A DNA stretch of 64,000 bases, taken from the NCBI RefSeq assembly GCF_055900595.2, contig NZ_CM148325.1; one strand, given 5' to 3'. The notes under the pieces were generated by a model that saw only the letters and a list, made by a program, of their open reading frames with translations, made no database searches and was not told the DNA's origin. Of this stretch, positions 59,640-61,498 are shown in pieces (position 1 is the stretch's first letter; every line of letters begins with the position of its first letter). The position numbers and the translations under genes are program-made.

Positions 59640-60043
59640 ATATCTCAGCTTACCAGCAGTGGCATTATTTTTTCCAGAGGCGGTCGAACTCCGCCTTCGC
59701 AAAATAAGCGGAAGCCTCGCGAAGGATATCGTTACTGCGGCGCAGTTCACGATTTTCACGCTCCAGCTCTTTAAGACGCTGATGTTCAGCGGTGGTCAGC
59801 CCACCATCACCGCCCCCGGTATCCCGCTCATGCTGACGCACCCAGACACGCAGAGTCTCTGGCGTACAGCCAGTCTCTGGGGCAATGGAACAAATTGCCG
59901 CCCATTGTGAGCCATATTCGCCCTGACTTTCCAGAACCATACGAACTGCCCGTTGACGGACTTCGGGGGAAAAACGAGTATTTTAGTCATACTCTTTACA
60001 GTTTCCCAGGGAGTTTAGTCTCCAGTATTTCCGGGGCGGTTCA
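59640..60043 (-). mobile_element. IS3-family (IS629-like) left-end fragment with frameshifted orfA
   Basis: Minus strand shows tgaaccgccccgg...ATGACTAAAATACTCGTTTTTCCCCCGAAGTCCGTCAACGGGCAGTTCG, the IS629-type left end and orfA start with a 1-nt deletion; OrfA-like ORF 59659..59940; homology ends near 59640. Confidence 0.7.
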
Positions 60044-60063
60044 GTTCTGGCGCATTAATATTA

Positions 60064-60981
60064 GTGTCAACTAAATCCATGGCAGCAGGAAATGAGTCGT
60101 CTGTGTTGGATGCAGACAACAGTGTCGCTCTGGGGTATGGCTCTCAGGTGAATGGAGAAAGCAATGTACTTTCTGTAGGGGCCGGTCCTTCAGGATATGG
60201 ATTTTCAGTTGATGGTGCACCGGAAACCCGCCGGATTATAAATGTTTCAGATGGTGTTAAGGATAGTGATGCGGCCACAAAAGGACAGATGGACAACGCC
60301 ATTGCAGATGCTGTACGGGTGTCGGGGGATGCCCTGCGCGGTGAGATAGGCGGTGTATACAGAGATGCCCGTGCTCATACTGACAGTCAGGTTACAGCAG
60401 TACGTGATGAACTCAGCAGGGATATTATTGCAGGCACATCGGCAGCGGTGGCGTATACGGATGCATCTTCTCTTGCTCTTCAGGATGAAATAAAAGAAAA
60501 AGCGGATGAAACAGTTCAGGTTTCCCGGGCTTATACAGATAAAAGTGTACGGGATGCCCGTAAAGAAGCGAAAAGCCAGGCAGAACATCTCAGCGATGTG
60601 CTTGTGAAGAACAGGGCGCAGACGGATGCAGCAATAGCCTCAAATACAGCAGCGATAAGGAATAACAGTCATCGTCTGGATTTGACGGAAGCCTGGCAGA
60701 AGATGGCGACAGAGAGAATGAATAATATGCAGGAGCAGATTAAAGAGAACCGGAAGGAGTTAAGGGAGAGTGCAGCCCAGAGCGCGGCACTGGCAGGTCT
60801 TTTCCAGCCATACAGTGTTGGAAAATTTAACGCGACAGCAGCCGTTGGTGGTTACCGTGATGAGCAGGCCATTGCGGTGGGCGTGGGCTACCGTTTCACA
60901 GAGAATGTGGCAGGAAAAGTTGCAGTTGCTGCAGGTGGGTCATCCGCATCGTGGAATGCTGGTGTGAATTTTGAGTTCTGA
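60064..60981 (+). pseudogene. Trimeric autotransporter adhesin (YadA-like), 3' remnant: coiled-coil stalk plus membrane anchor
   Basis: C-terminal anchor ...[38 protein letters not shown]...WNAGVNFEF; no signal peptide or head domain; abuts the IS3 fragment 20 bp upstream. Confidence 0.65.
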
Positions 60982-61042
60982 CAGGTCAGGATTTAGATAT
61001 CTGTCCCGGGGGGAGTCCCCCGGGATATAATGAGGTACAGAG

Positions 61043-61498
61043 ATGCTGGATATAATCCTGGCGACGAGAGATATTTATTTTGAAAAAGCCCTGCGAGAGA
61101 TATTTGGAACCGTAAGCAGTCGAATCAGATATATAGAAGATGCCATATCAGACAGAAGAAGGGTGCAGTCAGGCAGGTCATTCAGATATTATTTTGTATT
61201 CTGTGATGATGAGTATACAGATATTGTTCGTATTCTTTTTACCGGAGAGGCCTGCTGTATTCTGAATAAGTCGATGCTGAATCTGAGAGCGGCCGGAGGT
61301 GTGTTGACGCTGGAAGAGCGCAGAGCGGTACTGAACCGGTATTACAGAGGTTTAAGTATTGCGGAGATTACAGAAGAGACGGGGCAGAATGACAAGACGG
61401 TATACGGTCATCTTCGTCGTGCACTGCAGCGGTCTGGATTCCGGAAGGGGCGTTTTATAAAGGGGAGAGAAGCGGCGGGGGATTCAGGTGTTGAATAA
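61043..61498 (+). CDS. Putative LuxR/GerE-type HTH regulator (151 aa)
   Basis: C-terminal segment LTLEERRAVLNRYYRGLSIAEITEETGQNDKTVYGHLRRALQ resembles a LuxR/FixJ-type HTH; N-terminal domain not recognised. Confidence 0.5.
   Translation: MLDIILATRDIYFEKALREIFGTVSSRIRYIEDAISDRRRVQSGRSFRYYFVFCDDEYTDIVRILFTGEACCILNKSMLNLRAAGGVLTLEERRAVLNRYYRGLSIAEITEETGQNDKTVYGHLRRALQRSGFRKGRFIKGREAAGDSGVE

Follow-up and report, generated by a model that had tools for sequence, protein, structure and literature searches.

The window analysed here, a 64,000-nucleotide stretch of contig NZ_CM148325.1, contains the remnant of a small YadA-like, Eib-related adhesin gene of the trimeric autotransporter (TAA) type. 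The remnant is followed by a GC-rich hairpin, an intact gene for a 151-aa DNA-binding protein (referred to below as the partner) and two possible mini-ORFs (Table 1). On its left it borders a fragment of an IS629-like element, which forms the right edge of a 12.2-kb mosaic. The conserved adhesin module terminates at 61737, and strains 104 and EC17CM2 have an identical arrangement downstream of it. The region of the shorter mini-ORF is invariant among intact loci; the ORF itself is predicted by translation. The longer mini-ORF has a counterpart in ORF-60C of phage P-EibC, which likewise ends in a hydrophobic segment. A PTS/transketolase operon is also found in the neighbourhood. Its identification as the frz operon of strain BEN2908 was rejected, as the genome paper places frz at ~3.99 Mb as against ~4.87 Mb for this operon.

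Table 1. Features of the adhesin locus and of the mosaic to its left (window coordinates)
Feature	Position	Strand	Basis or remark
12.2-kb mosaic in place of 514 bp of native locus	47832-60043		Comparison with intact loci
IS21-family element	Left end (TGCAAAATGGCATC...) at 47832; istA 47953-49599; istB		Part of mosaic
IS66 genes	tnpA 50862-51539; tnpC 51906-53477		Part of mosaic
SPATE protease gene	53616-57731		Part of mosaic
ISEc45/IS110 remnant	57858 to about 58998		Part of mosaic
AT-rich stretch without match	About 58999-59645		Part of mosaic, left of IS629-like fragment
Dead 5' fragment of IS629-like (IS3-family) element, 398 bp	59646-60043	-	HTH_Tnp_1, ALIL, IS629 identity
Pseudogene of small YadA-like, Eib-related TAA adhesin	60044-60981	+	Alignment to intact alleles, Pfam, 2LME
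Adhesin head repeats	Up to about 60231	+	Pfam head match, allele alignment
Adhesin neck	60232-60312	+	Pfam neck match, allele alignment
Adhesin coiled-coil stalk, one copy of 99-bp repeat	60313-60801	+	Allele alignment
Adhesin anchor	60802-60978	+	Pfam PF03895; YadA anchor structure 2LME
GC-rich hairpin between adhesin stop and next gene	61004-61025	+	11-bp stem, loop GAGT, no T-tract
Intact DNA-binding (HTH) protein gene, 151 aa (partner)	61043-61498	+	Pfam, BLASTP, hhalign, AlphaFold, Foldseek
Possible hydrophobic mini-ORF, 25 codons (VLNNVSYIVISVLLLLFFVVFVTNG)	61488-61565	+	Overlaps end of HTH gene, inside conserved module
Possible single-transmembrane mini-ORF, 31 codons (MKITKAAFIFALSVWSVAVICLLLFVLVVLG)	61610-61705	+	Position of ORF-60C in P-EibC
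IS256-family (IS1414-like) transposase remnant, right edge of module	61735-61921	-	Followed by IS1 and IS2

The adhesin remnant

Intact alleles of the adhesin in other E. coli are 386-421 aa long and start with MLKRRDAFLKKSALAVSVALLLSSQALA..., an N-terminal signal peptide. Alignment to these alleles (L001:7744-9009, L002:7750-8910 and L005:5762-7009), in line with the comparison to intact trimeric autotransporters that an earlier sequence-only reading had proposed as a check, places the break at codon 77; the remnant keeps part of this codon and everything from there to the stop. Residues 1-76 are lost (the signal peptide and the start of the head, including ~50 head residues), which corresponds to the first 229 bp of the gene. 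The 285 bp of native DNA upstream, including the promoter region, are also gone, giving a total loss of 514 bp. That reading had only the stalk and the anchor surviving; head repeats and neck are apparently kept as well, and the 311 remaining codons amount to 74-80% of the intact length (the 3' 80% of the gene).

The ORF proper occupies 60064-60981. It ends in the YadA-like anchor that had been noticed from the letters alone, and this anchor scores well in Pfam (PF03895, ORF residues 247-305, E 6e-17; 61.9 bits, cut-off 22.7). Other YadA models stay below their cut-offs: YadA_stalk reaches 20.2 bits (cut-off 28.4), YadA_head 20 bits (cut-off 25) and the NCBIfam YadA model 73-82 bits (cut-off 750). 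With an intact allele as query, the YadA membrane-anchor structure 2LME is matched at E 1.5e-17; at E <= 1e-3, the PDB search returned the YadA anchor, a NadA-type chimera and no other chain. Among the structures without a significant match is the solved EibD fragment, so immunoglobulin binding is unsupported. Some NCBI records for fragments of the family carry the label 'immunoglobulin-binding protein'.

The adhesin is 34-35% identical to EibC and EibD over residues 84-421, colinear through head, stalk and anchor; it is 26-27% identical to Saa and about 27% identical to YadA. Judged by these identities, the prophage Eib proteins stand nearest to it among characterised proteins, ahead of Saa and YadA. 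The adhesin family itself is uncharacterised. The name eYadA, given to a protein of APEC TW-XM (PMC12955052), was considered and rejected: that protein is encoded at the cueR-ybbJ locus, has 338 aa and shows 23% identity. A word-indexed protein search with the first 95 residues of the remnant returned fragments only and no allele with the head sequence of the window.

The sequence-only reading had named the UpaG/EhaG/Saa types for comparison. As a gene of that type, it would be a large multi-domain TAA cut down to stalk and anchor by one IS3-family insertion, with the head lying beyond the IS. Anchor and coiled coil are indeed present, and the ORF does begin 20 bp from the IS end, as described (GTG at 60064, IS end at 60043). 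The intact alleles tell against a large protein: they are of modest length, 311 codons of them are retained here, and they are closer to EibC/EibD than to Saa or YadA. The PDB matches, limited to the YadA anchor and the chimera, also tell against it. Beyond the IS fragment lies unrelated AT-rich DNA, and no TAA N-terminus occurs within the window. An in-frame head was sought by tblastn and blastn and found neither across the IS nor elsewhere in the window; neither the first 90 residues of the intact protein nor the 600 bp preceding its gene turned up in the rest of the window. For the window, the large-protein reading can be taken as already refuted by the allele alignment, and its probability is close to nil. 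The missing 514 bp could persist in the source genome outside the window.

The native start codon and the Sec signal peptide are absent from the window copy. Its frame is shut upstream by a TAG at 60016-60018, inside the IS, and the earliest start codons in frame are GTG 60064 and ATG 60079, neither of which comes with a signal peptide. A signal peptide is expected of a trimeric autotransporter and is missing here, so the window copy is a pseudogene of this family and not a working member. Lacking native promoter, start codon and signal peptide, the remnant is presumably neither exported nor displayed.

It could be argued that the remnant is still used, as a truncated protein translated from GTG 60064 or ATG 60079, with transcription by read-through or from an outward-facing promoter of the IS end. 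The ORF is undamaged, with no frameshift or stop 3' of the junction. From 60110 on, the adhesin DNA has just two differences, both synonymous, from genes annotated as 'YadA-like family protein'; over 60110-61737 there are only three nucleotide differences from strain TUM9803. Such near identity fits a recent event equally well. By the established biogenesis of type Vc autotransporters, a protein without a signal peptide would undergo neither Sec export nor outer-membrane insertion, and no plus-strand promoter-like site was found upstream of the remnant. Continued use is thus considered very unlikely, and the locus is best treated as a pseudogene.

The IS junction

An IS3-family element adjoins the truncated adhesin, as had been claimed. 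It belongs with the IS629/IS1203 group: it has an orfA with HTH_Tnp_1 (Pfam, E 2e-7), the ALIL pseudoknot (RF01497, 59647-59710, 51.3 bits) and 91.6-92.7% identity to annotated IS629-family copies. Its left inverted repeat (TGAACCGCCCCGG...) terminates at 60043, where the end reads ...CCGGGGCGGTTCA. It differs from the group in that only 398 bp of a ~1.3-kb element are left. In the alignment, orfA is frameshifted by a 1-bp deletion, and the element is cut within the ALIL frameshift pseudoknot at 59646. The second inverted repeat, a 3-bp target duplication and the IS629 orfB (DDE transposase) are all absent, and nothing IS629-like is found left of 59646. The element is a fragment and is not functional.

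Window positions 40373-47831 correspond to positions 1-7458 of the BEN2908 locus (L001) at 99.7%, and the homology picks up again at 60044/60072. The native left flank stops at 47831, which is 286 bp 5' of the adhesin ATG in all four comparators. The earlier picture of truncation by an IS3-family element thus stands in that the break lies at the IS end; it does not stand as a simple insertion, as only a 398-bp stub is present and 514 bp have been exchanged for a 12.2-kb mosaic. The SPATE gene within this mosaic was considered as Sha. This was rejected: Sha has 1302 aa and no EVNNLNK site, and the window protein has 1371 aa and contains EVNNLNK.

In the proposed course of events, an IS629-like element would have inserted in codon 77; its left inverted repeat now forms the right edge of the patchwork. 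This element would subsequently have been reduced to 398 bp. Insertion in codon 77 and later trimming require at least two events, most likely an IS insertion and then an IS-mediated deletion or rearrangement.

The same IS/adhesin junction occurs in none of 5426 complete E. coli genomes (0/5426). Over its first 66 bp (60044-60109), the remnant departs from every allele in these genomes at 22 positions, and 60044-60067 looks like the DNA flanking an IS629-like remnant on IncF plasmids. For these reasons the junction might mark a recombination event and not the original site of insertion. In that case the IS629-like stub would have carried along ~22 bp of a Tn3-family transposase fragment that once flanked it, and would have been joined to the adhesin gene near 60068 by illegitimate recombination or deletion. 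Of 23 aligned positions in window 60044-60067, 19 agree with the plasmid flank, and the alignment has one gap; BLAST matches to IS629 copies run on to 60067-60070. Against this, the junction bases read in the adhesin frame give a ten-residue string to be set against G|SGAIIWDA or G|SGAAILDA of intact alleles. Synonymous codon changes leave Ser, Gly, Ile and Leu in place, and 16 of 28 bases match in fixed register. This pattern is the signature of coding homology. A preference for certain targets may account for the likeness to other IS629 flanks, as may a BLAST ranking that picks the best-matching flanks. A recombination joint is unlikely, and insertion in codon 77 is retained as the preferred reading.

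The hairpin and the partner gene

The GC-rich palindrome after the adhesin stop, already seen in the first inspection, has the sequence CCCGGGGG-GAGT-CCCCCGGG. The window holds a single copy of it (61005-61024), where 0.02 copies would be expected, and its centroid fold has -23.2 kcal/mol (z -2.0). Intact loci keep it with one loop substitution; in strain F11, IS421 is inserted in it. The terminator scan did not call it, and its identification as a canonical intrinsic terminator is rejected as the T-run is missing. A TATAAT (61026-61031) follows directly 3' of the hairpin, and a GAGG ribosome-binding site comes after it. The sole promoter-like site called on the plus strand between 59000 and 62000 lies at 59204-59231. 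No sigma-70 promoter-like site was called before the partner gene, where the TATAAT lacks both a -35 and an extended -10.

The partner protein is identical (100%) in BEN2908 and TUM9803. It had been described as LuxR-like. An intact HTH gene is indeed present; the label, however, is a loose one. Sigma70_r4_2 scores above threshold (30.9 bits against 25.7), and neither GerE/LuxR (PF00196) nor Response_reg is among the Pfam families reported at E <= 0.01. With a profile of the ORF-156C family, LuxR-family chains reach only E about 0.03 and GerE 0.29. NCBIfam sigma models give 19-21 bits against cut-offs of 43-206, and cover residues about 69-130 only. Sigma region 2 was not found in the partner, and its N-terminal half is modelled as beta-alpha units.

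The AlphaFold model has a pLDDT of 75.9 with a 26-sequence alignment (without the alignment, the pLDDT of 37 is unusable). In this model, a truncated domain of receiver-like (beta-alpha)4 type appears to precede an HTH of three helices at the C-terminus, which is of the sigma-70 region 4 / LuxR-FixJ type. Strand 3 ends in an Asp (D55) that does not vary in either the partner or the ORF-156C family. In Foldseek, the best full-length matches are FixJ, StyR and RcsB, with low TM-scores (0.28-0.34). Like these response regulators of the FixJ/NarL class, which consist of a receiver domain and a LuxR-type HTH, the partner would combine two such parts; it differs in having, as modelled, only four beta-alpha units against the five of a receiver fold, and no neighbouring kinase. 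Locally, region 4 domains of ECF sigma factors match best (probability 1.0, TM 0.6-0.76 relative to target); the resemblance to ECF sigma factors does not extend to region 2.

A word-indexed search and an exhaustive phmmer search, the latter over 1.84 billion representative proteins, returned only near-identical copies of the partner and generic HTH matches, and tblastn against phages returned nothing. The link to ORF-156C was reached solely through synteny, and then profile comparison. In phage P-EibC a TAA gene, a stem-loop and a ~156-aa ORF follow each other in the matching order. Partner and ORF-156C are 22% identical (BLASTP E 4e-5), and hhalign aligns the two families over 129 columns with a probability of 95.5% (E 1.3e-8). 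By these comparisons the partner belongs, though remotely, to the ORF-156C family, an unstudied protein family found behind Eib-type adhesin genes.

The partner gene is found in 183 of 5426 complete E. coli genomes (about 3%), and the adhesin is contiguous in 176 of the 183. Three further members of the ORF-156C family adjoin TAAs of 349-383 aa; two divergent members have no adhesin gene upstream, so the linkage is frequent and not obligatory. Gene order across these genomes supports a functional link between partner and adhesin. The word 'orphan', used of the regulator in the sequence-only reading, does not describe its origin, as it is contiguous with the adhesin in nearly all carriers and a homologue follows eibC and other small TAA genes.

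As no sigma-70 promoter-like site is called before it, the partner has probably lost most of its transcription in the window; most likely it needs the adhesin promoter and read-through across the hairpin. An unrecognised promoter at the TATAAT could keep it expressed alone. The partner gene might, more generally, stand on its own, with a separate promoter and regulon (e.g. motility or other surface structures), and would then be unaffected by loss of the adhesin 5' end. The TATAAT stands 11 nt ahead of its ATG; in F11-type strains the partner ORF is intact although IS421 separates it from the adhesin. At eib loci a true terminator (stem and T-run) separates the TAA from the ORF-156C-type gene, and the divergent family members exist without an adhesin. 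Small HTH regulators adjoining adhesin or autotransporter genes are documented in pathogenic E. coli (PapX, VatX, TosE/TosF and AutA/AutR; PMC6246914, PMC5956150, PMC4844996). On the other side, the TATAAT is unaccompanied by a -35 or extended -10 and is not called as a promoter. In addition, homologues of 22% identity keep the two genes in the same order, on the same strand and a short distance apart, which suggests coupled expression of adhesin and partner. Independence of the partner is a plausible alternative, though on balance a doubtful one; coupling to the adhesin is the preferred reading.

The cassette and its relation to known systems

The whole is very probably a small cassette that has been damaged: an Eib-like adhesin has been decapitated in association with IS elements, and its partner has been left intact. 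It is a case of ordinary IS-associated pseudogenisation. In its intact form the cassette begins with ~285 bp of AT-rich upstream DNA; the gene for an adhesin of 386-421 aa, the GC-rich hairpin and the gene for the 151-aa partner come next, and one or two very small hydrophobic ORFs complete it. Many of its carriers are poultry or human isolates. The cassette of the window occupies the usual site, downstream of the PTS/transketolase operon, with the gap left by the decapitation now filled by the IS patchwork and its SPATE gene. In intact loci the partner may couple adhesin expression to other promoters or feed back on the adhesin promoter.

The locus is one more virulence-island gene broken by IS elements, and its annotation should say pseudogene, not adhesin. 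The adhesin gene or the adjoining intergenic region has been struck independently elsewhere, by an IS3-family element in EC17CM2 and by IS421 in F11-type strains, and ISKpn26 is listed next to the adhesin gene in one further genome. Typing by presence or absence of the adhesin gene could therefore mislead. The partner is a testable candidate regulator for eib-type loci, the control of which is only partly understood.

A broader view is offered tentatively, and we hold it to be rather unlikely. Eib-type adhesin, hairpin, a dedicated ~150-aa HTH regulator with a truncated receiver-like domain and a tiny membrane peptide might form a conserved, hitherto undescribed unit, common to prophage eib loci, plasmid-like contigs and the E. 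coli island. If this were true, the HTH family would switch the adhesin on or relay 'adhesin on' to other surface or motility genes, and the window would be a natural experiment in which a regulator has outlived its adhesin.

Among known regulators, PapX and VatX (MarR-like), TosE/TosF and AutA/AutR (LuxR/GerE-like) resemble the partner in that their genes lie beside or 3' of an adhesin or autotransporter gene; they have no detectable sequence relationship to it. YadA of Yersinia, the prototype type Vc autotransporter, shares the head-neck-stalk-anchor plan, a comparable size and the anchor alignment with the adhesin. It differs in sequence, as given above, and in having the signal peptide that is missing from the window copy. 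Saa, UpaG and EhaG are also trimeric autotransporters of E. coli. Saa is detectably similar and is further from the adhesin than the Eib proteins are. UpaG and EhaG exceed 1500 aa and have many repeated head and neck modules.

The closest known systems are the eib loci of the ECOR-9 prophages (eibC/eibD, ORF-156C, ORF-60C; AF151674). EibC and EibD are immunoglobulin-binding TAAs; like the adhesin, in which the same parts are probably present, they are small and consist of head repeats, a neck, a coiled-coil stalk and a YadA-type anchor. Their loci have the same order of TAA, stem-loop, ~150-aa ORF and small hydrophobic ORF. The ORF-156C-type gene lies directly downstream of the adhesin in both, and the partner proteins are homologous, with an identity of only 22%. 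The eib hairpins are terminators with a T-run, in contrast to the window hairpin. The setting also differs: eib loci lie at a prophage end, and in the window and four comparator genomes the adhesin lies on a genomic island after the PTS/transketolase operon, not at a lambdoid prophage end behind tail-fibre genes. In strain NRZ14408, a truncated copy of the same adhesin occupies the eib position of a prophage.

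The adhesin gene and the replacement of its 5' part

The adhesin remnant, a small YadA-like trimeric autotransporter (TAA) gene, lies at its normal chromosomal place. Its left flank encodes a LacI-type regulator, PTS IIA, IIB and IIC and two transketolases. Homology to the native locus breaks off 286 bp before the adhesin ATG, whichever of the four comparators is used, and there the window enters the left end of an IS21-family element (TGCAAAATGGCATC..., with TTTGGCAT reiterated). Because native homology breaks at 47832 and resumes only at 60044, a 12.2-kb block stands in place of 514 bp, of which 285 bp lie upstream and 229 bp are coding. 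Such an arrangement cannot be obtained by a single insertion; it requires insertion of one or more IS in codon 77 and, after that, at least one deletion or rearrangement.

Features of the adhesin locus and the adjoining replacement block
Feature	Position (strand)	Description
Left flank	40373-47831	99.7% identical to BEN2908 locus
Replacement block	47832-60043	IS21, IS66, SPATE autotransporter gene, ISEc45/IS110 remnant, ~650 bp unmatched AT-rich DNA, IS629-like stub
Plasmid-like segment	50810-58259	99.9% identity to plasmid of chicken strain Ch1 (NZ_CP127318.1)
SPATE gene	53616-57731 (+)	Complete, 1371 aa; Peptidase_S6, autotransporter beta-domain, ESPR signal peptide
AT-rich stretch	~58999-59645	Between ISEc45 remnant and IS629 stub
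ORF in AT-rich stretch	59154-59444 (-)	96 aa, three hydrophobic segments
IS629-like stub	59646-60043 (-)	398 bp
ALIL frameshift pseudoknot	59647-59710	51.3 bits
Stop TAG	60016-60018	Inside IS; closes remnant frame
Adhesin remnant	60044-60981 (+)	311 codons
Divergent head stretch	60044-60109
First start codons	60064; 60079	GTG; ATG
ORF with anchor	60064-60981	PF03895 at its end (Pfam, E 6e-17)
Stalk repeat	60334-60413	99-bp unit (L001, BEN2908 locus: 8263-8361)
Hairpin	61005-61024	CCCGGGGG-GAGT-CCCCCGGG
TATAAT	61026-61031	Directly 3' of hairpin
Partner gene	61043-61498 (+)	151 codons, helix-turn-helix
Tiny hydrophobic ORFs	61488-61565; 61610-61705 (+)	25 and 31 codons

The SPATE in the IS mosaic is not Sha, a protein of 1302 aa without the EVNNLNK site. 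The AT-rich stretch and its ORF went unmatched in 5426 complete E. coli genomes, PLSDB plasmids, Pfam and NCBIfam. The IS3-family fragment adjoining the remnant upstream encodes a transposase HTH (HTH_Tnp_1, E 2e-7) and shares 91.6-92.7% identity with elements annotated as IS629-family. It is dead: orfA has a 1-bp deletion, the element is cut within the ALIL region, and orfB is absent.

A megablast search with 60046-61800 found 176 of the 5426 genomes carrying at least 80% of the query in one place, annotated as a 'YadA-like family protein' followed by a 'sigma factor-like helix-turn-helix DNA-binding protein'. The intact adhesin has 421 aa in APEC strain BEN2908, 386 aa in TUM9803 and 415 aa in strain 104. 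It starts with a typical signal peptide (MLKRRDAFLKKSALAVSVALLLSSQALA...), followed by a short head, neck, coiled-coil stalk and anchor. A 33-residue (99-bp) tandem repeat in the stalk varies in copy number, with one in the window and TUM9803 and two in BEN2908 and strain 104, so that stalk length is polymorphic.

The sequence-only reading had described an adhesin reduced to its C-terminal anchor, starting 20 bp from an IS3-family end. The IS end (...CCGGGGCGGTTCA at 60043), its distance of 20 bp from the GTG at 60064, the anchor and the truncation are as described, but the extent of the loss was overstated. The remnant frame aligns to intact alleles from residue 78 (SGA...) on, and the preceding two bases, GT, fit codon Gly77; thus only residues 1-76 are lost, and 74-80% of the protein is kept, including the neck and last head repeats. 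The truncation itself stands: an in-frame head beyond the IS would have spoken against it, and none was found within the window. Searches with the first 90 residues (tblastn) and 600 bp around the start codon (blastn) found no 5' part elsewhere in the window, their sole match being native left flank (47774-47831).

The functionally decisive loss is that of promoter region, start codon and signal peptide. Neither of the first start codons is followed by a signal peptide, and a consensus scan of 59232-62000 found no promoter-like site on the + strand. Since the export signal is missing and type Vc biogenesis needs Sec export, the remnant is probably non-functional. Between 60110 and 61737 just 3 nt differ from TUM9803, two of them at synonymous sites in the adhesin; the remnant therefore shows no secondary decay, and the event either is recent or just cannot be dated. 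For an adhesin gene on an island, pseudogenisation by IS activity is routine.

Variation at the head and repeated insertions

The first 66 bp of the remnant differ from every allele in the complete-genome set at 22 positions, against the 3 differences in 60110-61737, a sharp mosaic boundary. The stretch can still be read as head repeats, with Ser, Gly, Ile and Leu kept through synonymous codon changes, and is taken as a putative divergent, mosaic head allele. It could instead be a recombination joint, as the 22-25 bp beside the IS end resemble the flank of a common IS629-like remnant on IncF plasmids, a Tn3-family transposase fragment; this is improbable. The likeness to the Tn3 tnpA fragment amounts to 19/23 matches with one gap over 60044-60067 (flanks compared: L003, L011, L010), and the flank of a chromosomal IS629-type copy matches more weakly. 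Likeness among these flanks could reflect target-site preference or a BLAST-ranking artefact. The window's junction and presumed mosaic head allele are absent from the complete-genome set. Heads also vary among intact alleles and in database fragments; the variation among intact alleles suggests that the tip is recombining and hypervariable.

In EC17CM2 (L004 5762-8345), an independent IS3-family insertion splits the same gene, with both halves kept; a further genome (H59) has ISKpn26 listed next to it. The locus has been struck repeatedly by insertion sequences.

The hairpin and the partner gene

The GC-rich palindrome noted after the adhesin stop is confirmed; it is unique in the window (0.02 occurrences expected), forms a hairpin of about -23 kcal/mol (z = -2.0), and is conserved at intact loci, where BEN2908 has a single substitution in the loop. 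No T-run follows it and no terminator was called, unlike the equivalent element of eib loci, which is a true terminator with a T-run. In F11-type strains (L009 3530-3560 and 4870-4900; also H46, H48-H52, H57), IS421 lies inside the hairpin with a 12-bp target duplication (GGGGGAGTCCCC), separating an intact adhesin gene from an intact partner gene. The TATAAT is perfect, but neither a -35 nor an extended -10 element is recognisable with it. An independent promoter for the partner gene is possible but somewhat doubtful. Partial read-through from the adhesin promoter is probably its main source of transcription, and in the window the gene appears to be transcriptionally stranded.

The partner gene is present in 183/5426 genomes (identity at least 99% in 182), and its product in the window is identical to those of BEN2908 and TUM9803. 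Residues 87-130 match Sigma70_r4_2 (Pfam, 30.9 bits; cut-off 25.7). The protein fails full sigma-factor models, and GerE/LuxR is not among the Pfam families reported at E <= 0.01. Protein-alone searches, even in 1.84 billion representative proteins, gave no relatives beyond near-identical copies. The decisive lead is synteny: the GenBank record of phage P-EibC has the order eibC, stem-loop, orf-156C, orf-60C, eaaC. The protein aligns to ORF-156C with 22% identity across 147 residues (pairwise E 4e-5), and a 15-member ORF-156C family profile matches it with 95.5% probability (E 1.3e-8). Three further family members (P0043, P0048, P0052) are each preceded, at a distance of 82 bp, by a YadA-anchored protein of 349-383 aa; this is not so for two divergent members. 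The supposed LuxR-like orphan regulator is therefore an HTH protein but no orphan: by synteny and homology it is the conserved partner of this adhesin class.

AlphaFold with the combined alignment gave a usable model (pLDDT 75.9) of four beta-alpha units and a three-helix HTH, with an invariant Asp at the end of strand 3. The best full-length Foldseek matches, all weak (TM 0.28-0.34), are FixJ, StyR and RcsB; the best local matches are ECF sigma region 4. 'LuxR-like' is acceptable only loosely, for a predicted FixJ/NarL-type architecture; the protein cannot be shown to belong to that family.

Both tiny ORFs belong to the conserved portion of the cassette. Their positional counterpart in P-EibC, ORF-60C, likewise ends in a transmembrane-like segment, and the frameshifted database protein P0011 is the partner fused to both. 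In L021/L022 (1-3983), a 1439-aa TAA and a BamE/OmpA-like gene come before a small TAA and an ORF-156C family member comes after it; the contig also carries toxin-antitoxin genes of plasmid type. In L023/L024, the gene ahead of a divergent member belongs to the PapB family, an hha-like gene is close by, and there is no TAA.

Relationship to known systems

RefSeq already annotates both genes. The relationship of the 151-aa protein to the ORF-156C family of eib loci is apparently undescribed in the searchable literature; it adds something small and testable but comes as no surprise.

Alignment to UpaG-, EhaG- or Saa-type proteins had been proposed for locating the break; intact alleles placed it at codon 77. 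Direct family comparison covered EibC, EibD, Saa and YadA. The prophage immunoglobulin-binding proteins EibC and EibD are the closest characterised relatives (34-35% identity, residues 84-421, E down to 3e-43 by tblastn); Saa and Yersinia YadA reach only 26-27%. The solved EibD fragments gave no significant match, so immunoglobulin binding by this adhesin is unsupported. In strain NRZ14408, a prophage carries a truncated copy of the same adhesin behind its tail-fibre genes, where eib genes classically lie. The 'eYadA' gene, lately studied in APEC, is not this one.

At intact loci, the partner may regulate the adhesin promoter or relay adhesin expression to other genes. AutA/AutR control the neighbouring upaB gene, and PapX, VatX and TosE/TosF are described as relaying adhesin expression to other genes (PMC6246914, PMC5956150, PMC4844996); the resemblance of the 151-aa protein to all of these is one of analogy, not homology.
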